Below, one piece after another: positions 1 to 34,120 of a stretch of 52,661 bases of DNA. Numbering within the stretch: position 1 is the stretch's first letter; each line of letters opens with the position of its first letter. The notes beneath the pieces are model-generated. The model did not search any database. It saw only the letters and a program-made list of their open reading frames with translations, and was not told the origin of the DNA. The translations under genes were made by a program, and so were the position numbers. Origin of the DNA: a virus (Duplodnaviria > Caudoviricetes); IMG/VR virus record IMGVR_UViG_3300042541_000817, positions 1 to 52,661 of that record, one strand, 5' to 3'.

Positions 1-90
1 TACTTTGTTTTCAATACGCTTTTCCATATCTCTTTCTTTTTCAGAGACATGATAGTGGTTTGAATATAGTTTAGCAAAGTGGTGTGGCAT
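1..90 (-). CDS. 5' part of hypothetical protein (runs off window edge)
   Basis: ATG at 90 (MPHHFAKLYSNHY...), TATAAT a few nt upstream on minus strand. Confidence 0.5.
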   Translation of the reverse strand, partial: MPHHFAKLYSNHYHVSEKERDMEKRIENKV

Positions 91-723: not shown

Positions 724-750
724 AGTCCTCCTCCATTATCTATTGTATCA

Positions 751-1177: not shown

Positions 1178-1323
1178 TAGTCATTCTCCTTAAAAGATAC
1201 GATTGATAGTTGGCTTAGTACTTCATTGAGCAGCGCTTCTTCATCTTCTGCCTCTGCTTCATATCTAAATGTCATGTAATCGCCTGTTGGCTCAAAGATA
1301 ACTTCTACTTTAAATTCTGACAT
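1177..1323 (-). CDS. small acidic hypothetical protein (48 aa, not in ORF track)
   Basis: MSEFKVEVIFEPTGDYMTFRYEAEAEDEEALLNEVLSQLSIVSFKEND; fills the gap with TAATG overlaps at both ends. Confidence 0.7.
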   Translation of the reverse strand: MSEFKVEVIFEPTGDYMTFRYEAEAEDEEALLNEVLSQLSIVSFKEND

Positions 1324-1646
1324 TATTCAATCTCACCTTCGAAATCAATAACTACCTTGCTAACTCGTCCGTCCTCGTTGAGTTGAACATAGACAGGGTA
1401 AAGTCCGTCACCATAGCCTGTGTTGAATACAACAGCAGAACCGATACCAAGTTCGCCATAAGAATTAGAAATGGTTGTGGCGCAAGCGCCGTGATAAGAA
1501 TAGTCGCCTTGCTTTCCGTCTAACTCGAATGCTTCTCCGTCATTGGTATTCCATTGGTCAAGGTAGCAGGGGTCGCCTACCATTGCTTGTCCGCTATCTA
1601 CCGCAAATGAACCTGCTAATACAAGTTCGTCTAATACATACTTCAT
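1323..1646 (-). CDS. DUF4241-like protein
   Basis: VDSGQAMVGDPCY and TGYGDGLYPV motifs. Confidence 0.65.
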   Translation of the reverse strand: MKYVLDELVLAGSFAVDSGQAMVGDPCYLDQWNTNDGEAFELDGKQGDYSYHGACATTISNSYGELGIGSAVVFNTGYGDGLYPVYVQLNEDGRVSKVVIDFEGEIE

Positions 1647-2098
1647 TGGGTCTCCTTTATTGTTAGTCCTACTAAGGTCATTTCATCAAGTGTAGCACAT
1701 TCTGTGCATTTTTCCAAATCGTGGTCTTGGAAGGAATCTCTAATAAGATTATCAGGGTCTTCCAGTTCAGCATGGCAGTTCTCACAGAAGTACCAGTTAT
1801 AGCCAATACGGATTTGAATGGTAGTGTCAGGTGGGCACGGTACCTCAGTAATGAAGTATCCTAATCTATTTACAAATCCCCAGCCAGACCAGATATAGGA
1901 GCCACCGTCATCGCCATCCCCATACATCCAGATTTTGTCAGGGGATTGAGATTTAACAAACTCTACCTCATCACCATATGTCTCAAACATAATGCCACCC
2001 TCCCCATTATCAAATGAGGCATTTGGGTCTATATGATTAGTGATTGGTTTGTATGTAGTTAGCCATTCATCAAATTCCATTTCAATAAACTTATCCAT
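1643..2098 (-). CDS. hypothetical protein with C-terminal CxxC..CxxC zinc ribbon
   Basis: ORF track; start moved to MDKFIEM; CENC/CTEC. Confidence 0.75.
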   Translation of the reverse strand: MDKFIEMEFDEWLTTYKPITNHIDPNASFDNGEGGIMFETYGDEVEFVKSQSPDKIWMYGDGDDGGSYIWSGWGFVNRLGYFITEVPCPPDTTIQIRIGYNWYFCENCHAELEDPDNLIRDSFQDHDLEKCTECATLDEMTLVGLTIKETQ

Positions 2099-2363
2099 TT
2101 TTCTTAGCCCTATCACTAATAGCAAAGGATAGTTGATATGTTAGGGCATATACCCATGACAGAGCGTCCATTTGGCCTTCCCAGTATTTACGCTCCATAG
2201 AATCCATTGCCTCTTCTGTATATTCTTCTTGCTCAACAGCGGCATTGTATTCTTTTTCAGCCTCAAGCATGAGGTTCTTAAGTTCACCATGGAGGATGTC
2301 TGTGCCTGATTCTCCAAGGTCAATGAGTTTCTGTAGTCGTGGTTCTAGGTCTGTTGTCATCAT
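2091..2363 (-). CDS. hypothetical protein
   Basis: ORF track; ATG 6 nt after the -10 of the promoter at 2370-2391. Confidence 0.75.
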   Translation of the reverse strand: MMTTDLEPRLQKLIDLGESGTDILHGELKNLMLEAEKEYNAAVEQEEYTEEAMDSMERKYWEGQMDALSWVYALTYQLSFAISDRAKKNG

Positions 2364-2569
2364 TACTCTAGTATACCCTCGGCCACTGACAAAATGTGGG
2401 AGGTGGCAATCATCTGTCCATTTAGAGATATATCCTCTATCTCCAAGTCCCAGTATTCATCTGAGTTCATATCTTCAATTAGTATCATTTCAGATTTGAG
2501 TTTCTCAGAATCTTGCTCCAGCGATAGGAGGTGCAGTTTCATGTATTCTTTAAGTGTGTTTAGGTCCAT
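2363..2569 (-). CDS. acidic hypothetical protein
   Basis: ORF track; tight packing. Confidence 0.7.
   Translation of the reverse strand: MDLNTLKEYMKLHLLSLEQDSEKLKSEMILIEDMNSDEYWDLEIEDISLNGQMIATSHILSVAEGILE
2370..2391 (-). promoter_or_regulatory. TGTCAG-N10-TAnnnT (PafBC/RecA-NDp-type) promoter
   Basis: TGTCAG tggccgaggg TATACT; one of 11 copies. Confidence 0.7.
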
Positions 2570-2572
2570 ATA

Positions 2573-2812
2573 TTAATTATAGGGGTTTGAGTTGATTTTT
2601 ACAACTTGGCGGGGTGTGACTTTAATCACAGGTTCATAGTCAGGGGTAGGATCCTCATCTACATGTGTAACAGTAGCATCCCATTTGCTTAATAGGATTA
2701 CATGAGATGATGCATGGCAAATGCAGGCGGGATCAATCTGAGGCTCAACTGATGCAGTAATCTCTATAAGAGCATCACAGTCAGTACATAGATAAGTAAA
2801 CTTAGTCCACAT
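2573..2812 (-). CDS. hypothetical Cys-containing protein
   Basis: ORF track; CTDC and CIC motifs. Confidence 0.65.
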   Translation of the reverse strand: MWTKFTYLCTDCDALIEITASVEPQIDPACICHASSHVILLSKWDATVTHVDEDPTPDYEPVIKVTPRQVVKINSNPYN

Positions 2813-2892
2813 TAGCAGTCCTCACAAGTAGTATCGCCATAGGTAATAGATACTCCACAGTCAGAGCACCAGGATTCATCATACATTCCCAT
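2812..2892 (-). CDS. 26-aa zinc-ribbon micropeptide (not in ORF track)
   Basis: MGMYDESWCSDCGVSITYGDTTCEDC; TAATG overlaps at both ends. Confidence 0.55.
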   Translation of the reverse strand: MGMYDESWCSDCGVSITYGDTTCEDC

Positions 2893-3053
2893 TACTCACC
2901 CCAATACTTTATAATAGTATTCATAGTCATATGGAGATTACAATCGCAATCCCCACCATTCATGTTCTCCATGAATTCAAAGTGCGATAGGTTGTCCTCA
3001 TAGATTTCTGTTACCAGTTCATCTATGGTGTATGGTTTGTGGGTTGTGGTCAT
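2892..3053 (-). CDS. hypothetical protein
   Basis: ORF track; start moved to MTTTHKPY (ATGA overlap, RBS AGGAG). Confidence 0.65.
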   Translation of the reverse strand: MTTTHKPYTIDELVTEIYEDNLSHFEFMENMNGGDCDCNLHMTMNTIIKYWGE

Positions 3054-3280
3054 ACTGTACAAGACTCCTGACATATGTGATAGGCTTTTAGAGATGATAC
3101 TGTCAATTCTAACATTTCGTCAGGGTATCTGTCAAGCACCCAATTAAGTGCTTCACCAGCAGTATTGAAGTCAGAGGCAGTGCTACTTTCTCCATAGCCT
3201 TGTATAGTTGCTTCCCAGCAGTCAACGCCACCAGGGGAGCAGGAGTATTCCATTTCGTATATTTCTACATTTAGGGTCAT
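3050..3280 (-). CDS. hypothetical protein
   Basis: ORF track; leaderless after TTGACA-N17-CATAAT. Confidence 0.7.
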   Translation of the reverse strand: MTLNVEIYEMEYSCSPGGVDCWEATIQGYGESSTASDFNTAGEALNWVLDRYPDEMLELTVSSLKAYHICQESCTV

Positions 3281-3286
3281 GTATTA

Positions 3287-3315
3287 ATTATGACAGGAAT
3301 CCTGGGAAATGTCAA
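3287..3315 (-). promoter_or_regulatory. sigma70/SigA-type promoter
   Basis: TTGACA-17 nt-CATAAT, 6 nt before ATG. Confidence 0.65.
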
Positions 3316-3320
3316 GTCTA

Positions 3321-3396
3321 TCGTAAAGATTTTTTGGTTTGATATTTTTGGGGATTTTTAATAGTCTTCGTAAAGATTTTTTAATTTGACATTTTT
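3321..3396 (+). repeat. 29-bp imperfect direct repeat TCGTAAAGATTTTTTnnTTTGAyATTTTT
   Basis: copies at 3321-3349 and 3368-3396. Confidence 0.75.
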
Positions 3397-3440
3397 ATGT
3401 CCGATATGTCTGAATTGTCCACACGTGCGGATTTTCTTTG

Positions 3441-3516
3441 CGATTCCGATGGGATTTGAACCCACGATCTCTACAGTGACAGTGTAGCGATTTAAACCAG
3501 ACTAATCTACGGAACC
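3441..3516 (-). tRNA. tRNA-Asp(GTC)
   Basis: cloverleaf: acceptor GGTTCCG/CGGAATC, anticodon stem CTACA/TGTAG with CT-GTC-AC loop, T-loop GTTCAAATC, discriminator G; no encoded CCA. Confidence 0.93.
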
Positions 3517-3522
3517 AAATGG

Positions 3523-3550
3523 TGAGCAGTTTTTATTCTTACTCAGGAAT
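3523..3550 (-). ncRNA. H-type pseudoknot motif copy 1
   Basis: ATTC-CTGAGTAA-GAAT-AAAAAC-TGCTC. Confidence 0.7.
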
Positions 3551-3558
3551 TTTTTTAA

Positions 3559-4575
3559 TTATGCAATCTGCAAAACATTTTGCACAACTTTTAGCAAACG
3601 ATTCTTTTCTGCATTGATAGCAGGGTCAAATCCGCTTGCGCTTGCAAGGATAGATTCGTTAGAACCACCACGAGCAGAACGATACCAATCAAGGCGTTCA
3701 GTTAGTGCATTGAAAGCACCCCACGCATTACCAGCAATCATTCCATTGAATTCGCCAGTGTAGATGTCATTGATAACATCAACCTTGTTTTCCCATTTCT
3801 TGAAAGCACCCTTAGAATCTTTTTCAGGCTTAGGGTATGCAGCAAGAATGATGTTGTTGAAATCTTGTGCGGTGATTTCTTTTTGAATCATAGCGTTAGC
3901 CATAACATCAAAAGAGTCCATGTACTTATGGGCAAGACCCAAAGTTTCACGAGCAACGGCAACCTTACCAGAAGCGGTCTGAGTGTGGCGAATCTTGAAA
4001 GATTGCTTGACACCATTCTTTTTCTTAGTAGTGTTTAGTGCAAGGTTAAGAGTGTTAGCGCATACAACACGAACAGGTGTGATACTTGCTTGAATAGCGA
4101 TTGAGCCATCGTGTGATGTATTGATAAGTAGATAAGTCTTGACCTTATCTGCAACACCGCTAGGGTCTAAGATTGTTTCACGCTCTAGTGCTAATGCACC
4201 GAATACGACACGACCACCCTTGATTGAACCAGCGGTTTCCCAACGACCTCCGCCATCGAGAATGTTATCACCGAATGAAAATAAATCTTCATTCTGCATA
4301 ACATGATAACGCTCACCAACGACACCAAGAATGTCGGTCTGAGAGTTGTCAGTAGGATTGGTACGCAATACATACTGATAGTTTTTGTCACTTGTTAAGT
4401 GTGATGGGGTTTCCAAATCCTCAAGACGAACATTCCAATTAGAAAGGCTTGCTAGGTCTAGCATTTCTTTTGTTGTTTTTTCCTCTGTGAATACGGTACC
4501 CAATCCATGCCAAGCGGGTTCACGAAATGATGCGAATGAAGCCTTACCATTTTGTGTTTCGATTTCATGTGCCAT
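3559..4575 (-). CDS. DUF932 family phage/plasmid-like protein
   Basis: REPAWHGLG, ETAGSIKGG and NTSHDGS..TPVRVVCANTL motifs; start moved to MAHEIE with RBS AAGGAG. Confidence 0.88.
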   Translation of the reverse strand: MAHEIETQNGKASFASFREPAWHGLGTVFTEEKTTKEMLDLASLSNWNVRLEDLETPSHLTSDKNYQYVLRTNPTDNSQTDILGVVGERYHVMQNEDLFSFGDNILDGGGRWETAGSIKGGRVVFGALALERETILDPSGVADKVKTYLLINTSHDGSIAIQASITPVRVVCANTLNLALNTTKKKNGVKQSFKIRHTQTASGKVAVARETLGLAHKYMDSFDVMANAMIQKEITAQDFNNIILAAYPKPEKDSKGAFKKWENKVDVINDIYTGEFNGMIAGNAWGAFNALTERLDWYRSARGGSNESILASASGFDPAINAEKNRLLKVVQNVLQIA

Positions 4576-4606
4576 GAGTTTTCTCCTTTTTTGTTGTTGA
4601 ATTTTA

Positions 4607-4736
4607 AGTATAGCAGGACGGGCTGACAAATGCAAATCGGGATAGTTAAACATGGGACAAATTGGACATTCCTTAATGTGATTAAATTCACATGATCGTA
4701 AAAGTTATCCACAGACTTATCCACAGGCCCCACGTG
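4607..4736 (-). promoter_or_regulatory. regulatory cassette: PafBC-type promoter, GGACA-N4-GGACA, CRP site, two DnaA boxes, CACGTG
   Basis: 4607-4628; 4655-4668; TGTGA-N6-TCACA 4677-4692; TTATCCACA 4705-4713 and 4717-4725; CACGTG 4731-4736. Confidence 0.75.
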
Positions 4737-4759
4737 TAAATTTTGCGGGAATTAAAAGT

Positions 4760-4787
4760 TGAGCAGTTTTAAAACATGCTCAGGTTT
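4760..4787 (-). ncRNA. H-type pseudoknot motif copy 2
   Basis: AAAC-CTGAGCAT-GTTT-TAAAAC-TGCTC. Confidence 0.7.
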
Positions 4788-4802
4788 ATTAGTAGCCCCC
4801 TA

Positions 4803-5231
4803 CTAAATATCTATACGGTCCACACTGGATGATAACCATGTGACATCATCTGAATTGTAAGATACAGTATCGAAATCAATATCATGAATTAGATTCTGTG
4901 CACTTTCTTCATCTCGTGCATTGACTGTAATTGAATAAAGAACTGTGACTTCCAATTCAAATTCTTTTGTTAACTCAAATCCGCAAATATCTGCAATTGC
5001 TTGTGCAGTCTCTTCTGAAATGGTACCGTCGTCCAAGTTTTCTAAGGTCCACTCTTGCATTTCATTACGCATACGAGAGCGCTCTGCAGCCTCACCATAT
5101 GAGCGCTGAGTTACTTTTTGAATGTGCTCTTCAAGTTGTTGAATGCGTTCTTTGTTTTGTACTAGAGTAGTTTCTAAAAACTCTCGTGTCATATAGTGTG
5201 TGTCTGTTGCTACTGTGATTGGTTGGTCCAT
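4803..5231 (-). CDS. acidic coiled-coil hypothetical protein
   Basis: ORF track; RBS GAAAGAGG; promoter at 5263-5292. Confidence 0.8.
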   Translation of the reverse strand: MDQPITVATDTHYMTREFLETTLVQNKERIQQLEEHIQKVTQRSYGEAAERSRMRNEMQEWTLENLDDGTISEETAQAIADICGFELTKEFELEVTVLYSITVNARDEESAQNLIHDIDFDTVSYNSDDVTWLSSSVDRIDI

Positions 5232-5262
5232 GGGGGCCTCTTTCTGTTAGTTGGTTAATTCA

Positions 5263-5292
5263 ATTGTACTGGGTGCCACTGACATTTGTCAA
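5263..5292 (-). promoter_or_regulatory. promoter with both TTGACA -35 and TGTCAG-N10-TACAAT
   Basis: TTGACA aa TGTCAG tggcacccag TACAAT. Confidence 0.7.
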
Positions 5293-5305
5293 GATCCCTT
5301 GCGGG

Positions 5306-5332
5306 GAGTAGTTTATACACATACTCAGGTGT
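5306..5332 (-). ncRNA. H-type pseudoknot motif copy 3
   Basis: ACAC-CTGAGTAT-GTGT-ATAAAC-TACTC; compensatory change in stem 2. Confidence 0.7.
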
Positions 5333-5387
5333 CTTATCTCAGGCATACCTACACATCAAGGCGTAGGGCTTAGCAGAGATAAATTAT

Positions 5388-5813
5388 TTAGAGATAACGA
5401 GCAACCGCATTGTAAGTGCTGGTGCTAACTACTTCCTCATCTGTCATCTTGAGAATACGAATTGCGTTAGACATTTCATCTACCATCTCGTTGTAGGTGT
5501 GTCTGTGGATTTGCTCAAAATTACGCTCAGGTTCAGCAGGAAAGTTTGTTCCGCTTTCTACCTTGATGTCAAAATCAACATTGAGAGTTTTGTTCCACTC
5601 ACGATAGTTCGTGCGTAGATTTTCTGCCTTTGAGATTTGACTAATAGCATACTTTACTAATTGTTCGTTCCAAGCCTTTTGTGCTTCTTGGAACTTTGCT
5701 TCGTTCTCATCTTGTGTTTTGTAGTTAGCCTCTAGTTCTGCTAACTTAGTTTCTAGTGCGTTGATAACTCTCTGTGTAGGTATCTTTACGCTAATTGCTT
5801 TTCCTCTTGCCAT
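5388..5813 (-). CDS. conserved phage hypothetical protein (coiled-coil)
   Basis: ORF track; RBS AAGGA. Confidence 0.8.
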   Translation of the reverse strand: MARGKAISVKIPTQRVINALETKLAELEANYKTQDENEAKFQEAQKAWNEQLVKYAISQISKAENLRTNYREWNKTLNVDFDIKVESGTNFPAEPERNFEQIHRHTYNEMVDEMSNAIRILKMTDEEVVSTSTYNAVARYL

Positions 5814-5853
5814 TGGGTCTGTTTCCTTTTCTTTGTTTTGTTAGGGGGTTGGT

Positions 5854-5891
5854 TGAGCAGTTTATTTATTATCTCATGCTCAGGAGATAAT
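5854..5891 (-). ncRNA. H-type pseudoknot motif copy 4
   Basis: ATTATCTC-CTGAGCAT-GAGATAAT-AAATAAAC-TGCTC (8-bp stem 1). Confidence 0.72.
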
Positions 5892-5898
5892 TGTCAAA

Positions 5899-6063
5899 CT
5901 ACTTGGCTGTCCAAGTTGTGTATCGTGGCTTGCCATTTACATCTAACTTGACACGAACATTTCCGTTAGCCTGTGGTGTGATTTCTGTGATGATACCACT
6001 TACCTTTGACTTTTGAGTTGTGTAGGTGTCGCCTACTTTGTAAGTTGCGGTTGCTACTGACAT
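5899..6063 (-). CDS. 54-aa SH3/KOW-like small beta protein (not in ORF track)
   Basis: MSVATATYKVGDTYTTQKSKVSGIITEITPQANGNVRVKLDVNGKPRYTTWTAK; RBS GAAGGG; own TTGACA-N18-CATAAT promoter. Confidence 0.75.
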   Translation of the reverse strand: MSVATATYKVGDTYTTQKSKVSGIITEITPQANGNVRVKLDVNGKPRYTTWTAK

Positions 6064-6161
6064 TTGTTTCCTTCTTTCTGTTAGGGTTTTGCTTACTATC
6101 TAATTATGACATTTCTTGGGAAAAATGTCAAGTCTAATTTGAGATTTCTCAAATAGTGAGA

Positions 6162-6332
6162 TTACTTGCTGGTCTTGACCATAGCCAAACGGCGTGAGCC
6201 ATTTGCTAGAACTAGACTAACTCTGGTAAGTTTATTAGACATTGGCTCAAAACTAGCAATACGACCTGTAATGCCTGTCTTGCTTGTCGTGAATAAATCA
6301 CCAATTTGGTATTGGTATCCTCCAAGGGTCAT
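6162..6332 (-). CDS. 56-aa SH3/KOW-like small beta protein, paralog of 5899-6063 (not in ORF track)
   Basis: MTLGGYQYQIGDLFTTSKTGITGRIASFEPMSNKLTRVSLVLANGSRRLAMVKTSK; RBS GAAAGG. Confidence 0.75.
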   Translation of the reverse strand: MTLGGYQYQIGDLFTTSKTGITGRIASFEPMSNKLTRVSLVLANGSRRLAMVKTSK

Positions 6333-6420
6333 TGTTCTGCCTTTCTGTTGTGGGGTTTTGCTTACTATCTAATTCTAGCAGAAAAATGTCAAAAATACCA
6401 ATTCAGCGGAGGATTTGGGG

Positions 6421-6484
6421 TGTGTCCTTAATCACATCTTAAAGGCGTGTCGTGACTTGACAGATCAAAGATTTTGCCCACGTG
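6421..6484. promoter_or_regulatory. CRP-like site, GACACGCC (WhiA-like) and CACGTG
   Basis: TGTGT-N6-TCACA 6421-6436; GGCGTGTC 6444-6451; CACGTG 6479-6484. Confidence 0.6.
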
Positions 6485-6566
6485 CCCTTTCGGGATTACT
6501 ACTGATACAAAAATAAAATAAATAAAAAAAATGCTAAGAACATCCATTGTGTTGAATTCATTTATC

Positions 6567-7289
6567 TCATTTCTTACTCGCAGAAAAAATTATGTCACTC
6601 TTAGAGTATACACAAAGTGAGCAAGAAACGCAAGCGCTTCCATTTGTTGAGATAAGCGGAATTTGTTTATTATTCTCAGGACACTTAGCAGCAGGCTTAC
6701 CAATCATTTCTTTTACATCTGCTTGACCAATAGCAAAATTCTTAGCAAGGTATGCCATGCGTACGCCACTATTAATTTTTAGGTCTACTGCGGTTTTTAC
6801 ATTCTCGCTATCTGCAGAAAAGTATAGGCTTAGATTATCAATACCCTTGAGCATTAGAGCAGCACTTGCTACACGAGTATAAACCCAAAATTGAATTTCA
6901 GGATGATTAAGTATTACATGCTTCCATGCGAATGTGTAGGTATCGTTAAAAAAGTCTCCGTCCCAATGAATACGGAATAGTTTAGGAGCGTCTTTCTTAT
7001 TGCAGTCTGCAACAAAATCAACAATCATTTCTTCAAGCAATGCTTTCATAGTATCATGGTCTGCGTCTTTAAGCAATGCCCAATTGTGTAATAGATTAGT
7101 TTTTACTGCGGGGAATAGTCTTTCGAGTTTTCCTGCGTAGCATACGCTTTCACATACGCTAGTGGCACCAGGGCACGAGAAAGCCTTTCCAGCAGGTAAT
7201 CCAAATGTGTTTGCGATACTTGCTTGTTTTCCATTTTTTGTGACAAGGTTAGCCACCTTCCTATCTTTAGAGCGTTTTAGTTTAGTCAT
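6567..7289 (-). CDS. Gp88-family protein (Cys-cluster, radical-SAM-like)
   Basis: FGLPAG..SCPGATSVCESVCYA, FRIHWDGDF, WVYTR and C-terminal CP..CxxCxLC motifs. Confidence 0.75.
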   Translation of the reverse strand: MTKLKRSKDRKVANLVTKNGKQASIANTFGLPAGKAFSCPGATSVCESVCYAGKLERLFPAVKTNLLHNWALLKDADHDTMKALLEEMIVDFVADCNKKDAPKLFRIHWDGDFFNDTYTFAWKHVILNHPEIQFWVYTRVASAALMLKGIDNLSLYFSADSENVKTAVDLKINSGVRMAYLAKNFAIGQADVKEMIGKPAAKCPENNKQIPLISTNGSACVSCSLCVYSKSDIIFSASKK

Positions 7290-7295
7290 GGGGTT

Positions 7296-7439
7296 CTACT
7301 TTCTTTCTTTAATTATAGCGGAGGGGTCTGACAATTTTTTTCTATTGTAGGTTTTCTTTGACGGAACACTTGAGGCAGCATTAGATCTACGCAACTCCAT
7401 AAGTCTGCGTAATTCCTCGGGTGTTTTCTTTTGTGTCAT
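7296..7439 (-). CDS. 47-aa very basic protein (not in ORF track)
   Basis: MTQKKTPEELRRLMELRRSNAASSVPSKKTYNRKKLSDPSAIIKERK; leaderless after TTGACA..TAAGAT. Confidence 0.65.
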   Translation of the reverse strand: MTQKKTPEELRRLMELRRSNAASSVPSKKTYNRKKLSDPSAIIKERK

Positions 7440-7484
7440 AAACTAATCTTAGCATACATGGGATAAAAATGTCAAATCTTAAAA

Positions 7485-7542
7485 TGTGATAAAGATCACA
7501 CGACGCACGTGGGCATTTTTATGCGGGGAAGTGCATAAAAAT
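7485..7542. promoter_or_regulatory. CRP site, CACGTG and terminator-like hairpin
   Basis: TGTGA-N6-TCACA 7485-7500; CACGTG 7506-7511; ATTTTTATGC/GCATAAAAAT inverted repeat. Confidence 0.6.
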
Positions 7543-7550
7543 ACTTTTAG

Positions 7551-7793
7551 TTATTCTATTGTTTCAATAAAAACATACAACGGAATTAAATCAGTGTAAG
7601 AATAATTGGCAAAGTCTAATTCATCAAATTCATTCTTAGTCTGAATACTCCAATTATCTGCAGTTGAATCACTTTCAATAAACATAACTTCAACAATGTC
7701 ATCACCGACTTTAATTAAATCGCCAATCATTAATTGATCTGGCTTGAGTTCATCTGCAAAGATTAGTTCCATGCTATTTATTGTATCAGACAT
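7551..7793 (-). CDS. acidic hypothetical protein
   Basis: ORF track; RBS AGGAGG. Confidence 0.75.
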   Translation of the reverse strand: MSDTINSMELIFADELKPDQLMIGDLIKVGDDIVEVMFIESDSTADNWSIQTKNEFDELDFANYSYTDLIPLYVFIETIE

Positions 7794-7794
7794 T

Positions 7795-8010
7795 TTACTT
7801 TCCTCCTACTTTTCCGTCACGATAAAAAATCTTGGTGTGCATTTTGCCATTAGGCTCTGAAAAATTGTAGGTTGCATAGTCATCTGCAAATCCCCAATCC
7901 ACAATTTTATTCCACTCGGTCACTGCGCTAATTGCGTCTGAATAACGACCAACCCAATGAGGTGAAGTATCATTATCATAGGTTGCAGTAATTGCGTATG
8001 AGTATTCCAT
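7795..8010 (-). CDS. hypothetical protein (DxGFAxDY..PxG..TK motif)
   Basis: ORF track; start moved to MEYSY; similar to the N-half of 35511-35966. Confidence 0.75.
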   Translation of the reverse strand: MEYSYAITATYDNDTSPHWVGRYSDAISAVTEWNKIVDWGFADDYATYNFSEPNGKMHTKIFYRDGKVGGK

Positions 8011-8011
8011 T

Positions 8012-8308
8012 TTAGTATTCCCTTTCAATAAGCCACGCATTTAGGTGGTGTTGTTCAATTATTGCATAAGCGGGGGCAGTAGTCAAACCCTTATAGGTTA
8101 TTCCTTCGGGCATAGGTATTTCCAAGTCCCATAGTCCTGCGTCATTTACTGCGTCAATAGCCTCAATACATACCGATACCATAGACTTAGGCACTGGCGG
8201 GTAGTGATTAGCAGATAAGTGAATACCTATCTGAGTTTCTAAATCAAGATGAATACCAAGATTATCAAGTGTTCCGTCTGCCATTTCTGTTGCAAAATTA
8301 CTTCCCAT
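8012..8308 (-). CDS. conserved actinophage-type hypothetical protein (HLxxNHYPPVP, HHLxAW)
   Basis: ORF track. Confidence 0.8.
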   Translation of the reverse strand: MGSNFATEMADGTLDNLGIHLDLETQIGIHLSANHYPPVPKSMVSVCIEAIDAVNDAGLWDLEIPMPEGITYKGLTTAPAYAIIEQHHLNAWLIEREY

Positions 8309-8541
8309 TATCGTGCTTCTCCGCTCATTAGTAGTTCAGGCTCACTTAGTAGCCCATTATCCCAAATAACACTTCCGTCATAGTCTAATAGTAATTCGTA
8401 GGGATTACACTCGCAAGTTTCTGAGTCAAAATCCTCGCCATTTCCCCAATACAAATTACCTTGACCATTACAAGCATTACAATTCTGTATCGCTCTTAGT
8501 GCGTATTCTAATTTATCCATTTTTTCCTTCTTTCTGTTCAT
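8308..8541 (-). CDS. DnaJ-type CxxCxGxG zinc-finger protein
   Basis: CNACNGQG...CECN; start at 8541 (leaderless) or 8520 (RBS). Confidence 0.7.
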   Translation of the reverse strand: MNRKKEKMDKLEYALRAIQNCNACNGQGNLYWGNGEDFDSETCECNPYELLLDYDGSVIWDNGLLSEPELLMSGEAR

Positions 8542-8590
8542 ACTGAAATCCTATCAGATAGGGCTGACATTTTCAACCCTACCCAACCAC

Positions 8591-9088
8591 TCACCAAGAC
8601 GAATGGTACGAAAAGGACAAATTGGACAATTCGGGTAGAGCAAGAATACGCTCTAATTGTTCAATAGTATTCTCTAGGTCACGCCAATACCATTGATCGA
8701 TATCTGTTCCACCAAAGAAAAATCCTTCTTGTGGTGGCAATAGGCTAGGGTCTTTATTTTCTAAAGAGTGCTTACAAATCGCAAGCAATTCTATTAATTT
8801 ATCTTGTGATACATAGTAGTCACCGCAGTCGTCAATTCCTTTTTGTACATTTTTGACAAACCAATTATGAATCTGATTAGCCTTGCGCCAATAAGCACAA
8901 GTCACTTCTACGCTTGCGCCATAGATATCTGTTGCGACATTGGATAATTGTGTTAATTCCATTAGGTTGTTGAATTGCGGATATACCGCTTCAGGTGAGT
9001 CATAAGATAATTCGTCATTATCTCTTAGTGCGTTCCAATTCACTTTTTCCAAGTGTTTCTTGGCTAGTAAGTACATATCTAATCCCAT
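8591..9088 (-). CDS. conserved phage hypothetical protein (MGLDMYL, YWRKANQIHNWF)
   Basis: ORF track; RBS GAAGG; motif common in phages. Confidence 0.85.
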   Translation of the reverse strand: MGLDMYLLAKKHLEKVNWNALRDNDELSYDSPEAVYPQFNNLMELTQLSNVATDIYGASVEVTCAYWRKANQIHNWFVKNVQKGIDDCGDYYVSQDKLIELLAICKHSLENKDPSLLPPQEGFFFGGTDIDQWYWRDLENTIEQLERILALPELSNLSFSYHSSW

Positions 9089-9116
9089 TGGATTACCTTC
9101 TTTCTTTTAGGCTTCT

Positions 9117-9227
9117 AGCCTATCATTTCCTACTGACAAAATCAAACCGACACGCCGTAAAATCTGGGGGAATATTAAAATGTGTCGTAAATCACCCTGT
9201 GTATAACCCTGTGGATAACCCCACGTG
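9117..9227 (-). promoter_or_regulatory. regulatory cassette: PafBC-type promoter, GACACGCC, CRP-like site, two DnaA boxes, CACGTG
   Basis: 9117-9138; 9149-9156; 9181-9196; TGTGTATAA 9198-9206 and TGTGGATAA 9210-9218; 9222-9227. Confidence 0.72.
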
Positions 9228-9234
9228 AAATTTT

Positions 9235-9261
9235 TGAGCAGTTTTAGATCATGCTCAGGAT
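9235..9261 (-). ncRNA. H-type pseudoknot motif copy 5
   Basis: ATC-CTGAGCAT-GAT-CTAAAAC-TGCTC. Confidence 0.68.
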
Positions 9262-9268
9262 TTGAAAA

Positions 9269-9370
9269 CTAGAATCCGTTTTCTTTTATGTCTTTAATTG
9301 CTAATCGCAATAAATAAAATGTTGAAATTAGCAAAGCAAGTTGCACAAGTGTTGTTAAAAATCTGCTCAC
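9269..9370 (-). CDS. 33-aa single-TM peptide (not in ORF track)
   Basis: GTG start overlapping the upstream TGA; MSRFLTTLVQLALLISTFYLLRLAIKDIKENGF. Confidence 0.5.
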   Translation of the reverse strand: MSRFLTTLVQLALLISTFYLLRLAIKDIKENGF

Positions 9371-9567
9371 GCATTTACCTCAATTCCTTTATAGCAAGCA
9401 AGAGCAAATCTATTTGCGTCAAATCTTGGATTATCAGTTTCAAACATTAGAGAAAATTCATCTACCAAATCAGCAAATAAAATTTCTCCTTGCTCATCAA
9501 AAACAGAAGTAGCAAAGTAATTGCTAAGAATTTCAGCAGTTGCGACATAGTCTTTTCGTGTCATCAT
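9367..9567 (-). CDS. hypothetical protein (TRKDY...DNPRFDxxRF family)
   Basis: ORF track; similar to the C-half of 35511-35966. Confidence 0.8.
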   Translation of the reverse strand: MMTRKDYVATAEILSNYFATSVFDEQGEILFADLVDEFSLMFETDNPRFDANRFALACYKGIEVNA

Positions 9568-9656
9568 TTATGAGCACACTCGCTTTCTATTTCGTGTCCA
9601 AATTCATCTACTAATTCCTCGTAGATTTCGTCTAAGTATTCTAAGTAATCGCTCAT
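9564..9656 (-). CDS. 30-aa highly acidic peptide (not in ORF track)
   Basis: MSDYLEYLDEIYEELVDEFGHEIESECAHK; overlaps both neighbours. Confidence 0.6.
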   Translation of the reverse strand: MSDYLEYLDEIYEELVDEFGHEIESECAHK

Positions 9657-9862
9657 TATTCAGCCACCTTTAGAGTAGCCCAAGAATTGCCCTTATTGAC
9701 TTCATCAAGGACAGGACCGAGAGCAGGCGCAAGCAAATCTTTTAGCATACTTTCAAGAAAGTGAATTTGAATTTCACTATCTAATTCTAATAGTTGCTTA
9801 GCAGTTGGATTATTTTCATCTACCTCAGTTATGAAGTGGAGAGAGTGTTTAATTGTTTTCAT
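9656..9862 (-). CDS. hypothetical protein
   Basis: ORF track. Confidence 0.7.
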   Translation of the reverse strand: MKTIKHSLHFITEVDENNPTAKQLLELDSEIQIHFLESMLKDLLAPALGPVLDEVNKGNSWATLKVAE

Positions 9863-9881
9863 TTATTTTATTTCCTATTCT

Positions 9882-10073
9882 TTAATTTGAGGGGATAAGT
9901 GTGCCACGAAGTGTGCCACGAATTGAGAGAGTGTCGCAAGACATTTTGACCGCAACGCCTACTGGTAATTGAGTAGGATAAGTTGAGATAAATTGAGCAA
10001 CCGCACCTTTAGAGGGCAGGCTAATTTTTTTAGTAGAACCATTAAAGGTTTCTAGTGTTATAGTGTAAGTCAT
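9882..10073 (-). CDS. hypothetical protein, paralog of 12333-12524
   Basis: ORF track; RBS GAAAGGA; PafBC-type promoter at 10106-10127. Confidence 0.75.
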   Translation of the reverse strand: MTYTITLETFNGSTKKISLPSKGAVAQFISTYPTQLPVGVAVKMSCDTLSIRGTLRGTLIPSN

Positions 10074-10128
10074 TTTGACTTCCTTTCGTTTTTAGGTATA
10101 AGACTATCTTATACTATGGGGCTGACAA

Positions 10129-10341
10129 TTAGTCTGCGTTTTTTACCGCTAGATAGCGATAGGTATCCTTTAGGTTAAATATTGAGGGATAGTGTGGGCG
10201 AACCTGAACCCGATAAGTATCACAATTAGCATACCAAACCTTATCGGTTTTTTCTGCGTCGATTATTTCGCCATTTATTGAGCGAGAATTGTAAGTCTTG
10301 CCAATTAGCAGACTTTCTACATTATAGACATTTGCTGACAT
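10129..10341 (-). CDS. hypothetical protein, paralog of 10998-11198
   Basis: ORF track; PafBC-type promoter at 10373-10394. Confidence 0.75.
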   Translation of the reverse strand: MSANVYNVESLLIGKTYNSRSINGEIIDAEKTDKVWYANCDTYRVQVRPHYPSIFNLKDTYRYLAVKNAD

Positions 10342-10372
10342 AGTGTCACTTCCTTTTTTTCTTTAGATAGTA

Positions 10373-10595
10373 AGTATAGCATTTTTGGCTGACATTATCA
10401 AATCCAAATTCGGACATTTCCGACATTTTGAATGTGATACTCATCACACCGATTTTGCTATTTATTTAATTGTATAAGAGAATACTACCAGATAAATCTC
10501 AAAAAGTCAAGGCGACACGCCGTAAATGCGAGATTTATTTATGTGACCTTAAACACATTTTGCTTGTGGATAACCTGTGGATAAGTGCACGTGCA
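10373..10595 (-). promoter_or_regulatory. regulatory cassette: PafBC-type promoter, GGACA repeat, two CRP sites, second promoter with GACACGCC, two DnaA boxes, CACGTG
   Basis: 10373-10394; 10412-10425; 10433-10448; 10514-10521; 10542-10557; TGTGGATAA 10565-10573 and 10576-10584; TGCACGTGCA 10586-10595. Confidence 0.75.
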
Positions 10596-10809
10596 AAATT
10601 TGCAAAGTTTTTCTCTGCAATTTTGTTTTTATTTATTTTATTTCTTTACACTTAAGTAGTCGCTAATATTTACATACACAATGTATGCAACATAGGCTAA
10701 TACTGAAACAAAAATAATTTTCATTTATGATCTCCAATTTCATCTAGCAATTCCCAAAGTATTGGCTCTAATTCTTTAGCAACCAAATCTAATTTATCTT
10801 GTAAGTTTT

Positions 10810-10998
10810 TCATAGTGGCAAAATCTCTTTTCCATAGTATCCAACTGCTTCAACTAAGTTAATTACACTTTTGTATTCATTACAATTAAAGCAAATTCTA
10901 TTTTCTTTATTCATAGTGGTTGAGCAATAAACGCAGATATTATCTTGAAGGTTAAATCCTAACGCTTCAATTTCATTAAGGGACATAGATATTTTCAT
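10810..10998 (-). CDS. zinc-ribbon hypothetical protein
   Basis: CVYC...CFNC. Confidence 0.7.
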   Translation of the reverse strand: MKISMSLNEIEALGFNLQDNICVYCSTTMNKENRICFNCNEYKSVINLVEAVGYYGKEILPL

Positions 10999-11198
10999 TA
11001 GTTATCCTCAACCTTCACGCTAATAGTAGCCCAATTATTGCCATTAAAGCGAATAGCAAAAGCCTTATAGCCTTCGGGAGTATAGACATCGCTTCTCTCA
11101 GTAGAGTAGTTAATTTCACCATTAAGGTGTTTTCTCACAAGAGAGCGAGGATAGTATTGCTGACCATAGAGCAGGTCATTTATTGAATAAGTTTTCAT
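10998..11198 (-). CDS. hypothetical protein, paralog of 10129-10341
   Basis: ORF track; RBS GAAAGG; PafBC-type promoter at 11232-11253. Confidence 0.75.
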   Translation of the reverse strand: MKTYSINDLLYGQQYYPRSLVRKHLNGEINYSTERSDVYTPEGYKAFAIRFNGNNWATISVKVEDN

Positions 11199-11221
11199 TT
11201 AAGTTATTACCTTTCTTTTCT

Positions 11222-11398
11222 TTACTTAGTAAGTCTATCAGAAGCCTCTGACATTTCCTTACACTTATTAGGGTTATCCCACCAAGGGAAGCCCTCATGG
11301 TAGGTAGCAGGGGCAAGGACTACCTGACCGCAAGGGCATAGGTTCATCATGCCTTTAGGGTAGTCGTGTATAGTAGCGAACCTATTCCAAATACTCAT
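11222..11398 (-). CDS. 58-aa hypothetical protein (not in ORF track)
   Basis: MSIWNRFATIHDYPKGMMNLCPCGQVVLAP...; TAATG coupling. Confidence 0.6.
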   Translation of the reverse strand: MSIWNRFATIHDYPKGMMNLCPCGQVVLAPATYHEGFPWWDNPNKCKEMSEASDRLTK

Positions 11399-11604
11399 TA
11401 GTTAGCAACCTGACAAGAACCGCTAAGAGATTTCCAAGCAGACCAACCGCTAAGGCGGTCTGGGTCTTCTACCCAATAAGAGGTTATGTCTAATTCGCAA
11501 TTAGAGCAAGTCGCATAGCGGTCATACTCATCACTTACGATAGATGATTTAATTGCTTCGTGTGTAGAGAAGCCTAGTTTTTTTAGTAGTGTTTGTTCGT
11601 TCAT
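11398..11604 (-). CDS. hypothetical CxxC protein, paralog of 12016-12195
   Basis: ORF track; RBS GAAAGG; PafBC-type promoter at 11639-11660. Confidence 0.75.
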   Translation of the reverse strand: MNEQTLLKKLGFSTHEAIKSSIVSDEYDRYATCSNCELDITSYWVEDPDRLSGWSAWKSLSGSCQVAN

Positions 11605-11656
11605 TTTAGAACCAACCTTTCTTTTTCTTTATGTAGCAAGTCTAGCAGAGGGGTCT

Positions 11657-11756
11657 GACAAATCGGGGCATTTATTCGCTAGGCTCACTGTGATTTATCT
11701 CACATTTATTTGCTAGGCTCACTGCCCGATTTATCCCTTATTTAGTTTTTCTTACT
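11657..11756 (-). ncRNA. candidate ~100-nt two-fold symmetric small RNA
   Basis: own promoter (TTGCTT-N17-TAGACT, 11762-11790); 22-nt direct repeat held between an outer and an inner stem; no ORF. Confidence 0.55.
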
Positions 11757-11761
11757 CCGTA

Positions 11762-11967
11762 AGTCTAACATAAAAATCTCAAAAAAGCAAATCGACACGC
11801 CGTACTACAAGTGTGTTTCTTATCACATTAGTTATCAACAGCCTGTGGATAAGTCCACGTGTGACACGTGCAAATTCGGACATTATGGACATGTGATTAG
11901 TATCACAAAAATAGTTTTCCGACACGCCCGAGAAACAGGTCAAAATGTCAGTGGTCTGTGTTAGACT
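11762..11967. promoter_or_regulatory. divergent promoter hub with mirrored regulator sites
   Basis: leftward promoter 11762-11790; GACACGCC 11794-11801; CRP-like 11812-11827; DnaA boxes 11832-11840 and 11844-11852; CACGTG 11856-11861 and 11865-11870; GGACA repeat 11878-11891; CRP 11892-11907; GACACGCC 11921-11928; rightward TGTCAG-N10-TAGACT 11946-11967. Confidence 0.75.
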
Positions 11968-12015
11968 TACAGTAGTAAGAAAATGAGAAACTCTCATTAA
12001 GAAAGGTGGTCTCAA

Positions 12016-12195
12016 ATGACTACACTAACAATAACAAAATGCGTAGAGCATAAGCCTATGCTATCCGCTATCTCCAATGTAGGAGATGAGCAATTCACTT
12101 TCTGTATGGATTGTGAAAATAACATAGAGCGTTGGTATAACGATACCGACCCTGAAAGACTACCAATGTGGTCAGATTGGAGTGTATCTCTATGA
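12016..12195 (+). CDS. 59-aa CxxC protein, paralog of 11398-11604 (not in ORF track)
   Basis: RBS GAAAGGTGG; FTFCMDCENNIERWYNDTDPERLPMWSDW. Confidence 0.75.
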   Translation: MTTLTITKCVEHKPMLSAISNVGDEQFTFCMDCENNIERWYNDTDPERLPMWSDWSVSL

Positions 12196-12332
12196 TAAAC
12201 TCAGTTAAAACTATTGATTGCTCTACCTGTTATGGTAGAGGCTACATATTTTTCGGGGACAATGATGATTGTGCCATTGAAACATGTGATTGCGTATTAA
12301 ATGATGAACTAAATGTAGATTGGATTAACTAA
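12192..12332 (+). CDS. 46-aa CxxCxGxG zinc finger, paralog of 8308-8541 (not in ORF track)
   Basis: MINSVKTIDCSTCYGRGYIFFGDNDDCAIETCDC...; ATGA overlap. Confidence 0.7.
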   Translation: MINSVKTIDCSTCYGRGYIFFGDNDDCAIETCDCVLNDELNVDWIN

Positions 12333-12524
12333 ATGATAAATGTAACACTAACAACAACAACAGGCTCCACTAAGGGCATGAGGTTTGATACTAAGAATGA
12401 TGTCCTGCTATTCATTGAGAAGATGTCCGATACACTGCCTATCGGTACAGCAGTGAATATTGACGCACCACTCATTGGAATACATAGTGGGTGGATACAG
12501 GGTAAGCGTCTACAAAACACATAG
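12333..12524 (+). CDS. hypothetical protein, paralog of 9882-10073
   Basis: ORF track; followed by a terminator. Confidence 0.75.
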   Translation: MINVTLTTTTGSTKGMRFDTKNDVLLFIEKMSDTLPIGTAVNIDAPLIGIHSGWIQGKRLQNT

Positions 12525-12542
12525 CCTTATCTATTAAAAGAT

Positions 12543-12572
12543 TAGTGGGTCTATGGGCTCACTATTTTTTTT
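12543..12572 (+). terminator. intrinsic terminator
   Basis: TAGTGGGTC-TATG-GGCTCACTA-TTTTTTTT. Confidence 0.8.
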
Positions 12573-12676
12573 GATCATTTTTTGTTTATTTATGTATCAT
12601 ACATCTAAACAAAATATTCCAATTTACTCTAATTAAGAAATCTGAAAACAAATCTGAATTATGATATACTTAAACC

Positions 12677-13249
12677 ATGAGAAAACAATACACACGAGTC
12701 CAATACGACGAAAACGGTTTAAAGCAATGCACAAATTGCCAGGAATACAAAGAGACATCTAACTTCCATAAATACTCTAAGGCTCAAGATAGTTTGAAAC
12801 CTTGGTGTAAGGTTTGTGTAAGAGAATACGACTTGGCAGAAGATGATCCAAAAAGGGTTATGCCTAGAAAAAAGCAGGGGGAATTAATTCATTGTCGTAG
12901 ATGTGAAAAATATCTAGATAAATCTAACTTCTGGCGTGGCTCAACATATTGTCGTCCATGCAAGGTTTATATAGGTATAAACTCTAACCTTAGAAATAAA
13001 AACCTGACTATAGAAAAATATTCAGAATTAGAAAAATCTCAAAATGGGGTTTGTAAAATTTGCGGGAATACAGATTATAAGCGTTTATCCGTAGACCATG
13101 ATCATGCATGCTGTCCTGGAGAAAAAACTTGTGGAAACTGCACAAGAGGCTTATTGTGCTCTAGATGCAATAGAGCCCTAGGCTCTGTTAATGATGATGT
13201 AAAACTGTTACAAACTATGATACGATATTTAAATGGGGATATTAAATAA
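12677..13249 (+). CDS. recombination endonuclease VII-type (His-Me finger) nuclease with N-terminal zinc fingers
   Basis: QNGVCKIC..LSVDHDH..RGLLCSRCNRALG; two N-terminal CxxC..CxxC repeats typical of homing endonucleases. Confidence 0.85.
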   Translation: MRKQYTRVQYDENGLKQCTNCQEYKETSNFHKYSKAQDSLKPWCKVCVREYDLAEDDPKRVMPRKKQGELIHCRRCEKYLDKSNFWRGSTYCRPCKVYIGINSNLRNKNLTIEKYSELEKSQNGVCKICGNTDYKRLSVDHDHACCPGEKTCGNCTRGLLCSRCNRALGSVNDDVKLLQTMIRYLNGDIK

Positions 13250-20874: not shown

Positions 20875-21105
20875 ATGTCAAAATCAAAATGGCAAGAATA
20901 TAAAGAAAAAAATGGAGTTACTCCATTAGACATACTTAATCCAAACACAAAACATGCCTCTGAAGATTTGGCAACCACAAGACTATCTATTTGTAAAGTA
21001 TGTCCAGAATTAATTAAATTAACCACACAATGCAAAAAGTGTGGCTGCTTTATGGCTGCAAAAACAAAATTAGAAGCGGCAAAGTGTCCAATTGGAAAAT
21101 GGTAA
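20875..21105 (+). CDS. DUF6171-like Cys-rich protein
   Basis: RLSICKVC..QCKKCGCFMAAK..AKCPIGKW. Confidence 0.7.
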   Translation: MSKSKWQEYKEKNGVTPLDILNPNTKHASEDLATTRLSICKVCPELIKLTTQCKKCGCFMAAKTKLEAAKCPIGKW

Positions 21106-21106
21106 A

Positions 21107-21709
21107 ATGGAAAAAAACGAATTATGCCCTGGAATTTTTGTTTATAGTAATGTTATAGAAAATTTTATTTTTGATTCTTTGATTGAAGATATTGAAGAAG
21201 GGATGAAATATCTCAATATACAGTGGCAACAGTCTCAGGTAGAACACAAAGAAGGCGTAACAGTTGACACTAATTCAAGAGATACACAAATTATTGGTGT
21301 AGAATATCGAGATCATATTGTTGAAAATTTTTCAACACCACACGAAGCGTTTTACTTAAATCTTTCAAATATATTTTTTAAAGCGTTTAATCCAAGAGAA
21401 CATGATTACAAGTCTATGTTTGGCTGCCAGACTACTTGGCACGATCAGTACGGAATTTTAAAATACGGTGTTGGTCAAAAATTTACTAATCATATAGATG
21501 ATCACATAAATCATCATAGAAGAATTTCTACAACGTTTTATTTAAATGAAAATTATGAAGGTGGAGAAATTATTTTCCCTAGGTTTAATGTAAAATATAA
21601 ACCGAAAAAAAATGAATTATTAGTTTTTCCTTCTACGTTTGTTTATAATCATTCAGTATCTCCAGTTCTTGAAGGAGAAAGATACGCAGTTGTTAGTTGG
21701 ATGCGATGA
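21107..21709 (+). CDS. prolyl 4-hydroxylase-like 2OG-Fe(II) oxygenase
   Basis: KYGVGQKFTNHID, YLNENYEGGE, HSVSPV..GERY. Confidence 0.88.
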   Translation: MEKNELCPGIFVYSNVIENFIFDSLIEDIEEGMKYLNIQWQQSQVEHKEGVTVDTNSRDTQIIGVEYRDHIVENFSTPHEAFYLNLSNIFFKAFNPREHDYKSMFGCQTTWHDQYGILKYGVGQKFTNHIDDHINHHRRISTTFYLNENYEGGEIIFPRFNVKYKPKKNELLVFPSTFVYNHSVSPVLEGERYAVVSWMR

Positions 21710-34111: not shown

Positions 34112-34120
34112 GAGATACAA

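Follow-up and report, generated by a model that had tools for sequence, protein, structure and literature searches.

The leftward genes of an uncultured phage begin behind a promoter that reads into a stretch without coding capacity, and the locus raises the question of whether this stretch acts as RNA or as DNA and, if as RNA, whether it is a free small RNA or the leader of the first gene. The DNA analysed, called the window throughout, is the whole 52,661 nt (52.6 kb) of an IMG/VR virus record with an estimated completeness of ~48% and a G+C content of about 36–43%. Small leftward genes without known family fill positions ~1–11600 and rightward genes begin at 12016, with ribonucleotide reductase and virion genes located further right. 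The best identity of the portal protein is 47.5%, to Streptomyces phages, and a distant DNA search of an isolate phage collection with positions 11400–12200 gave no match. No recognisable RNA-binding protein or transcription factor was found among the open reading frames (ORFs) of this ~48% complete record.

Several features elsewhere in the window were recorded alongside. Paralogous pairs of small early genes flank the divergent promoters (9882–12524), namely 11398–11604/12016–12195, 9882–10073/12333–12524 and 10998–11198/10129–10341. The 2OG-Fe(II) oxygenase domain occurs in at least nine ORFs (21092–21709 and 32631–39579), eight of them in a near-continuous run at 32631–39579. ORF 41756–45472 (plus strand, 1238 aa) sits between ribonucleotide reductase and portal, and had no match in PHROG, Pfam or PDB sequences. 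ORF 7296–7439 (minus strand; 47 aa, pI 10.8, Arg/Lys-rich), preceded by its own palindrome and TTGACA promoter, encodes a strongly basic protein, and no other small early protein is of this kind.

Layout of the element and its promoters

An earlier note, made from the letters of this DNA alone, had described a promoter at 11762–11790 facing an ORF-free stretch, then a stem, a repeat and the hairpin UGUGA-gauaaa-UCACA in that order on the minus strand, and a separate promoter for the next gene. Our reading agrees on all three points. The minus strand holds no ORF of 30 aa or more between 11756 and 11605, leaving ~150 nt behind the promoter, P1, without one; positions 11657–11735 form an outer stem that encloses two strands of almost the same sequence and, at the centre, a TGTGA/TCACA hairpin; and, by consensus, the −10-like TGcTAGACT of a second promoter, P2, precedes the gene at 11604–11398. 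From upstream to downstream the features are as follows.

11785–11790, minus strand: −35 box of P1, TTGCTT (TTGACT in most relatives)
11762–11770, minus strand: extended −10 of P1, TGtTAGACT (hexamer 11767–11762), with a 17-nt spacer from the −35 box
11723–11735, minus strand: 5′ arm of the outer stem, GATAAATCGGGCA (also given as GAUAAAUCGGGCA)
11717–11722, minus strand: short strand of module 1, GUGAGC, near-invariant in 84 distinct relatives among the matches listed
11713–11716, minus strand: 5′ half of the middle helix, CUAG, complementary to its partner in 84/84 among the matches listed
11705–11712, minus strand: long strand of module 2, CAAAUAAA
11689–11704, both strands as a DNA site: apical hairpin UGUGA-GAUAAA-UCACA, in DNA the palindrome TGTGA-N6-TCACA
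11683–11688, minus strand: short strand of module 2, GUGAGC
11679–11682, minus strand: 3′ half of the middle helix, CUAG
11671–11678, minus strand: long strand of module 1, CGAAUAAA
11657–11670, minus strand: 3′ arm of the outer stem, TGCCCCGATTTGTC (also given as UGCCCCGAUUUGUC), its end overlapping the TGTCAG box of P2 at 11660–11655
11639–11647, minus strand: extended −10 of P2, TGcTAGACT (hexamer 11644–11639), a consensus match of the TGTCAG-N10-TAnnnT type
11398–11604, minus strand: first leftward gene of 68 aa without family, which follows the leader

The arms of the outer stem form an 11-nt inverted repeat with 91% complementarity. Across the element runs a 22-nt direct repeat (11669–11690 and 11703–11724; 95% identical, spacing 34 nt), and the 22-mer is observed twice in the window where none is expected.

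Both P1 and P2 are assigned by consensus, and the start of the RNA is predicted, from spacing only, at ~11755–11756. Within 110 nt upstream, the strict pattern TTG[AC][CT]T-16..18-TAnnnT was found for 87 of 118 distinct listed cores compared with 30 of 2000 control windows, and in the same 118 cores the end of the P1 −10 box usually lies 34–40 nt ahead of the first module. The hairpin is preceded by a conserved linear leader, AAUUAAAUAA. Elsewhere in the window, a second cassette (~10340–10582) has P1, palindrome and P2 and lacks the RNA module, the rightward promoter is without this element, and the leftward region contains many internal promoters.

Further motifs accompany these promoters. 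Promoters of the second type, which read (A/T)TGTCAG-N10-TAnnnT and have no −35 box, occur at 11655–11660, 11944–11949, ~10383–10388 and ~4619–4624, in a layout similar to that of the activator-dependent middle promoters of T4. At 11751–11767 (minus strand) the −10 hexamer and the 5–7 nt that follow after a gap of 3–4 nt make up a palindrome spanning the predicted start, and at P1/P2 of loci L083–L107 this start-site palindrome covaries (CTTAC-GGA-GTAAG, TATACT-TGC-AGTATA, TAGGA-TAC-TCCTA, GATAGGA-TAG-TCCTATC and GATAAGA-TAG-TCTTATC). An N4-type hairpin promoter, used by a virion polymerase, was considered for the −10 palindrome and is unsupported, the 1238-aa ORF having no PDB-sequence or Pfam match. 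Just upstream of the TGTGA-N6-TCACA sites that belong to several early promoters, single or doubled copies of TTATCCACA, a perfect DnaA-box consensus, are seen at 11844–11852 (minus strand), ~10565–10585 and 4705–4725 (plus strand), and the arrangement recurs in relatives (TTATCCACAGGGTTATACACAGGG). Between palindrome and −35 box stands ACGGCGTGTCG (11793–11803 on the minus strand, ~11925–11935 and 10490–10530), which in relatives takes either orientation and two positions. In module-less leaders the palindromes are adjoined by AATGTCCGAATTTG, with ATGTC repeats ~11 nt apart (10405–10425 and 11870–11890).

Fold and covariation in related phages

The fold consists of the outer stem, an internal loop of GUGAGC opposite CGAAUAAA, a 4-bp CUAG/CUAG helix flanked by C-C mismatches, the inverted loop of CAAAUAAA opposite GUGAGC, and the apical hairpin. 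The window element has two UGAGC/CAAAUAA modules in inverted orientation: the CUAG pairing divides what would be one large loop into two symmetric 6 × 8 internal loops with dyad symmetry between them, and in both of these RUGAGC faces CRAAUAAR. The two 18-nt strands had been described as facing each other, and their positions are correct. They are not simply unpaired, however: since the repeat centres in relatives are complementary rather than identical, the strands pair through a middle helix of 4–5 bp. The folding energy of the single sequence gives modest support on its own (a 106-nt RNA, −24.5 kcal/mol, z = −2.8, with 1 of 200 shuffles folding as well), and the strong support comes from relatives.

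A pattern with both repeat cores retrieved 25 contigs from IMG/VR. When the pattern was anchored outside the element, as the leader ACAATTAAATAA plus any TGTG-N8-CACA, at least 117 stretches with 109 distinct leaders were found, and a wider pattern scan gave at least 120 stretches. With no pairing condition imposed, 115 copies, 84 of them distinct, were extracted from all loci among the matches listed. The middle helices of these 84 listed sequences are CTAG/CTAG (41), CTTAG/CTAAG (24), CTAAG/CTTAG (15), CTGAG/CTCAG (2) and CTAAT/ATTAG (2), and CUAC/GUAG and CUAU/AUAG are further pairs in relatives. Fully complementary middle helices, in seven variants, are present in 97 of 99 distinct viral cores among the matches listed, and in the other two the parse crosses from one module into the next. 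The outer stem covaries as well, at its base (GGCA/UGCC, GCCA/UGGC, GGUA/UACC and GGCUA/UAGCC) and partly in its distal portion, and the base before UGAGC covaries with the base after CAAAUAA as A-G or G-A. Within the loops, the triplets GAG and UAA are invariant in 84/84 sequences among the matches listed.

Two alignments put numbers on these changes, and because the phages are related, fewer independent events lie behind them than their cell counts suggest: in the first (A2, 43 sequences) 91.4% of cells are paired against 29–37% in slid-partner controls, with 5 of 21 pairs changed on both sides and a covariation score of 0.164 compared with 0.076 after shuffling (0/500 shuffles as high). The covariance model R1, made on A2, finds one copy in the window (11654–11739, 77.5 bits) and 106 matches in 84 of the related loci. 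The second alignment (A3), which is built from R1 and so fitted to the model, takes in these 106 matches, 89 of them distinct; here 92% of cells are paired against 30–40% with slid partners, 18 of 21 pairs have changed on both sides, and the score is 0.306 compared with 0.091 after shuffling, again with 0/500 shuffles as high. Even allowing for kinship and model fitting, the diversity of pair types is evident. MAFFT with RNAalifold, run on 118-nt pieces (A1), returned only the apical stem and a competing GC/GC pairing, which is broken by the CUAC/GUAG and CUAAU/AUUAG variants and was rejected; the programs missed the fold because middle helices of 4 nt and 5 nt are out of register.

On this comparative evidence the element is best read as a structured RNA whose helices are kept by compensatory changes. 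The earlier note had named homologues with covariation as the check on its proposal and a DNA repeat kept without its stems as the contrary outcome. All helices covary in relatives, so that the comparison came out for RNA, and the fold in relatives supports its picture of a pseudo-two-fold symmetric RNA of the leftward strand directly behind an early promoter. A K-turn, a sarcin-ricin loop, box C/D, ToxI-like repeats and a mini-CRISPR array were dropped by eye, because tandem G-A or a bulged G is absent and the repeats inter-pair.

The conserved unit is the internal-loop module, UGAGC opposite CAAAUAA, in either orientation. Hairpins of relatives carry one, two or three modules; the three-module form has an outer stem CCUAG/CUAGG, then UGAGC-CUC-UGAGC ... 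CAAAUAAG-AG-CAAAUAA. Some loci have more than one element (two or three), sometimes arranged as tandem promoter-element cassettes. The palindrome gives way to unrelated apical stems in about half of the relatives (matches listed), with 41 distinct apical hairpins across 49 non-operator cores among the matches listed. Apical stems of lower-scoring copies include GCGAAC/GUUCGC, AUAAC/GUUAU, CCG/CGG and CCUA/UAGG, and the replacement stems are often closed by GAAA, GCAA, GUAA or UUCG. The genes behind the element also differ by phage, being homologues of 9882–10073, 9367–9567, 10998–11198, 10810–10998 or 12016–12195. Since the downstream gene changes, the element is tied to the promoter and not to the gene, and autoregulation by the downstream product is therefore unlikely.

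A scan of a genome collection gave 59 stretches, in which the true copies were only 12 matches on 9 contigs. These contigs all come from metagenome bins whose taxa disagree with one another, and early proteins of the window recur on them. We rejected them as cellular copies or as evidence of the host, and read them as contigs of the same phage lineage in bins.

Other leaders were seen behind the same promoter. A third leader type (L087, L103, L111, L117, L118, L130 and L147) has the palindrome followed by a covarying hairpin (CCCC-AAAA-GGGG or CCCU-AAAA-AGGG) and AGGCUAA repeats, and this hairpin may be another RNA element. After the three-module versions at L096:7100–7170, L187:8560–8610, L249 and L205, immediately ahead of the ribosome-binding site, comes one more hairpin that covaries (GTTACC-ACAA-GGGTAAC, GATAAC-ACAA-GGTTATC and GGTTAG-AAAG-TCTAACC).

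The apical palindrome as a DNA site

The perfect palindrome TGTGA-N6-TCACA occurs six times in the window against 0.05 expected. Counting sites with one mismatch there are nine, all within 2615–11907, that is in the early region, and each stands 33, 43–44, 54 or 64 nt before a −10-like hexamer. Those at P1, at P2 and at the rightward promoter are:

11812–11827, one mismatch: site of P1, 44 nt from the −10 at 11767–11762
11704–11689, perfect: site of P2, 44 nt from the −10 at 11644–11639
11892–11907: site of the rightward promoter, 54 nt from the −10 at 11962–11967

The earlier note had missed that the inner stem belongs to this family of sites, which follow the CRP/FNR-type consensus; no CRP-family protein is encoded in the window. 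Over 1252 distinct contexts in the related loci listed, the distance from site to extended −10 peaks at 44 (199), 54 (98), 65 (57) and 33 nt (23), and the control is flat. Helical phasing of this kind characterises activator or repressor sites. As apical hairpin, the palindrome is found in 58 of 58 listed cores that have a P2-type box after them and in 0 of 60 that do not. Any apical hairpin thus suits the RNA motif, and where P2 follows, the operator of P2 occupies this place. The bases of the apical hairpin would thus be used twice, for the RNA fold and as the putative DNA operator of P2.

The presence of a DNA site leads to the question of whether the element is DNA throughout, as iterons or operators or as a recombination cassette like the PeSLs of T4-type phages, its RNA being functionless. 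The inner palindrome is indeed a DNA site, the 3′ arm of the element overlaps the TGTCAG box of P2, and the gene that the cassette precedes varies from phage to phage, as PMC2839356 describes for PeSLs. A DNA element would nevertheless leave unaccounted for three helices that stay paired through compensatory changes while their sequences differ. The supposed repeats have centres that vary complementarily and not identically, their spacing varies with the apical hairpin, and the apical stems are capped by GNRA-type loops, which together argue for a folded single strand and not for iterons. The DNA-only reading is therefore already disfavoured, and we regard it as very improbable. As to which strand is folded, our call is made on the apical tetraloops, the A-rich loops, the constant position behind the promoter and the sense of the next gene. 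Wobble asymmetry shows a modest excess of G-U over A-C/C-A cells on the sense strand (63 and 44, respectively) and was set aside as too weak for strand evidence.

The transcript, its possible role and known systems

We next consider what kind of transcript would carry the fold. The stand-alone small RNA that had been proposed does not hold: no terminator follows, the sequence continues into P2 and the gene, and RNA-library contigs join the element to the start of the gene. The promoter consensus expected of a free RNA is present, and the defined 3′ end that an intrinsic terminator would give is not. Specifically, there is no U-tract after the stem and no terminator-like site between 11657 and the gene, the next on the minus strand being at 789–759. 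RNA-library contigs, which may include DNA and give neither ends nor strand, overlap the element in three of four runs; run X7 gave no contig on it. One 151-nt contig, identical to the window, spans 11586–11735 and with it the element, P2 and the start of the gene. Depth, coverage gaps and contig ends in these libraries carry no information on level, start or end, and the contigs lend weak support to transcription and to a leader over a free RNA. We therefore lean towards a 5′ leader that runs into P2 and the first gene and not a free small RNA, a view held, together with the partner proposed for it below, with only slightly more belief than doubt.

The explanation that we favour, if by a little over even chances, is that the element is a structured 5′ leader outside the Rfam families, made from P1, which uses its apical hairpin twice and offers a platform for a symmetric partner on P1 transcripts. 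Transcription would start at the strong early promoter P1, pass through the element and continue into the first leftward gene. The two inverted modules would form a pseudo-dyad docking surface, and the partner would most likely be a dimeric protein of phage or host. Since transcripts started at P2 would exclude the element, such a partner would act on P1 transcripts only, setting their stability, their translation or, in the manner of nut/boxB, their elongation. Relatives with one or three modules indicate, however, that a strict dimer platform is not required.

Several other roles would fit part of the same evidence. RNase III sites behind T7 early promoters and in the λ N leader trim or stabilise early mRNAs, and the element could likewise be a processing or stability element, a quasi-continuous hairpin cut by a dimeric double-strand RNase of the RNase III type or by another RNase. 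Its pseudo-two-fold shape, ~26 stacked layers long, its several copies per genome in early leaders and its place between promoter and gene would suit such a role, which we nonetheless consider unlikely, given that the copies follow transcription starts rather than gene boundaries, that the near-invariant loop sequences are not needed by RNase III and that, as weaker evidence, contigs bridge element and gene. Decidedly unlikely is a leader for processive antitermination that modifies the polymerase like HK022 put or λ nut/boxB, alone or with a small basic phage protein: no terminator is found downstream until 789–759, the leftward region has its many internal promoters, the rightward promoter has no such element, and no N-like protein was found in the window, where ORF 7296–7439 is the only strongly basic small ORF. 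The strictly promoter-proximal position, the conserved linear leader AAUUAAAUAA before the hairpin and the intrinsic terminators ahead of P1 in some relatives would speak for it. So would the module signature, which fits a GNRA-like loop as in boxB, and boxB RNAs are described in PMC12550061 as GNRA-like folds read by N peptides.

If the RNA were after all released as a free and abundant molecule, it could, as the earlier note suggested, sponge a host protein that forms dimers or a symmetric ligand, cyclic dinucleotides being one candidate, and might in this way serve as a decoy against defence. The symmetric architecture, a place ahead of everything else that a strong early promoter transcribes and the tandem cassettes, with up to three elements per locus in some relatives as expected for titration, agree with this idea, which we hold to be improbable all the same, since the search for a terminator or another defined 3′ end found none, the element runs straight on into P2 and the gene, no riboswitch or small-RNA family matches, the number of modules varies from one to three and no link to defence genes is seen. 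An assembly of RNA only, with the adenine stacks of GNRA-like modules docking in a second copy (a homodimer) or in another RNA, is more improbable again: the inverted orientation and the spacer helix fixed at 4–5 bp would fit it, but the UAA/GAN likeness of the modules is a sequence signature only, no receptor motif was identified, and one-module variants exist. Symmetry of this kind may also suggest a riboswitch for a symmetric ligand, against which stand the lack of an expression platform, of a family match and of a coherent set of downstream genes.

Returning to the structured leader with its dual-use hairpin, a bolder form of it would be a symmetric RNA device in which GNRA-like modules capture a two-fold target, be it a dimeric regulator of the host, a sensor in defence or a cyclic dinucleotide, or make the RNA pair with another copy of itself, while the same bases encode the operator of P2, so that RNA made from P1 would be coupled to the switching on of P2. 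We think this doubtful, about as unlikely as the RNase site. If true, it would place an early-to-middle switch in one 85-nt stretch at the levels of both RNA fold and DNA site. Few structured phage RNAs are known outside model phages, and the comparative support is unusually clear here, with about a hundred distinct versions among the matches listed and every helix covarying. The element lies where early transcription begins, the stage that decides host take-over. As a single sequence selected twice over, for an RNA hairpin and for a transcription-factor site, it would make a compact test case for overlapping codes, and it offers a convenient starting point in the search for the regulator of a phage lineage not yet cultured.

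Searches for known families gave little. Rfam 15 had no match over 11605–11790 at E up to 10 (window 10500–13000); ten related loci gave one tRNA only at the gathering threshold, and four gave one 22-nt chance match only at E up to 5. A full-text literature search with the module's 15-mer, written as DNA and as RNA, gave 0 occurrences, the papers listed for its 10-mer were unrelated, and a search for pseudo-symmetric phage RNA motifs yielded nothing relevant among the matches listed. The likeness to c-di-AMP riboswitches that had been pointed out extends to shape and not to any Rfam family. The element has in common with the ydaO (c-di-AMP) riboswitch that its RNA shows pseudo-two-fold symmetry and belongs to a 5′ leader, but it is much smaller, has no expression platform and no Rfam match at E up to 10, and the genes downstream are unrelated small ORFs.

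With the RNase III sites of T7 and of the λ N leader the element shares multi-copy internal-loop hairpins in early transcripts, of a dyad-like shape that suits a dimeric enzyme; its copies, in contrast, are tied to transcription starts and its loops are near-invariant. λ nut/boxB and HK022 put are structured RNAs with conserved unpaired bases shortly behind phage early promoters. The element resembles them as a promoter-proximal structured RNA with conserved unpaired bases, boxB being GNRA-like according to PMC12550061. It differs in having neither a sequence nor an Rfam match to them, no nearby terminators, no N-like protein found and a symmetric two-module architecture. In PeSL cassettes of T4-type phages, as PMC2839356 describes them, a σ70-like early promoter, together with a stem-loop, flanks small ORFan genes, the stem-loops being G/C-rich terminators for upstream transcription. 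The likeness lies in repeated cassettes with genes behind them that differ between related phages (PMC2839356). Here, however, the hairpin lies downstream of P1, lacks a U-tract and has conserved internal loops, so the terminator that marks a PeSL is absent. As in CRP/FNR operators, the palindromes are perfect over 16 bp, several per early region, and helically phased with respect to the −10 boxes downstream, as class I activator sites are; compared with class I sites of E. coli, their centres lie ~3 bp further upstream, counted from consensus spacing.

The module itself recalls the UAA/GAN internal loop, reportedly described by Lee, Gutell and Russell in 2006. PMC12550061 presents that loop as a GNRA-like module found in rRNA, in RNase P and in introns of groups I and II. 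The element has GAG in UGAGC and UAA in CAAAUAA, both invariant, with helices on both sides of the loop; its module is larger, however (5–6 × 7–8 nt), has extra invariant bases (U, C and CAAA) and is found in a small phage leader as two copies in inverted orientation. We take the likeness as a possible lead and not as a test. Set beside all of these systems, the module appears not to be catalogued, and the element is best regarded as a new RNA motif, well supported by its relatives, with an overlapping putative DNA operator.
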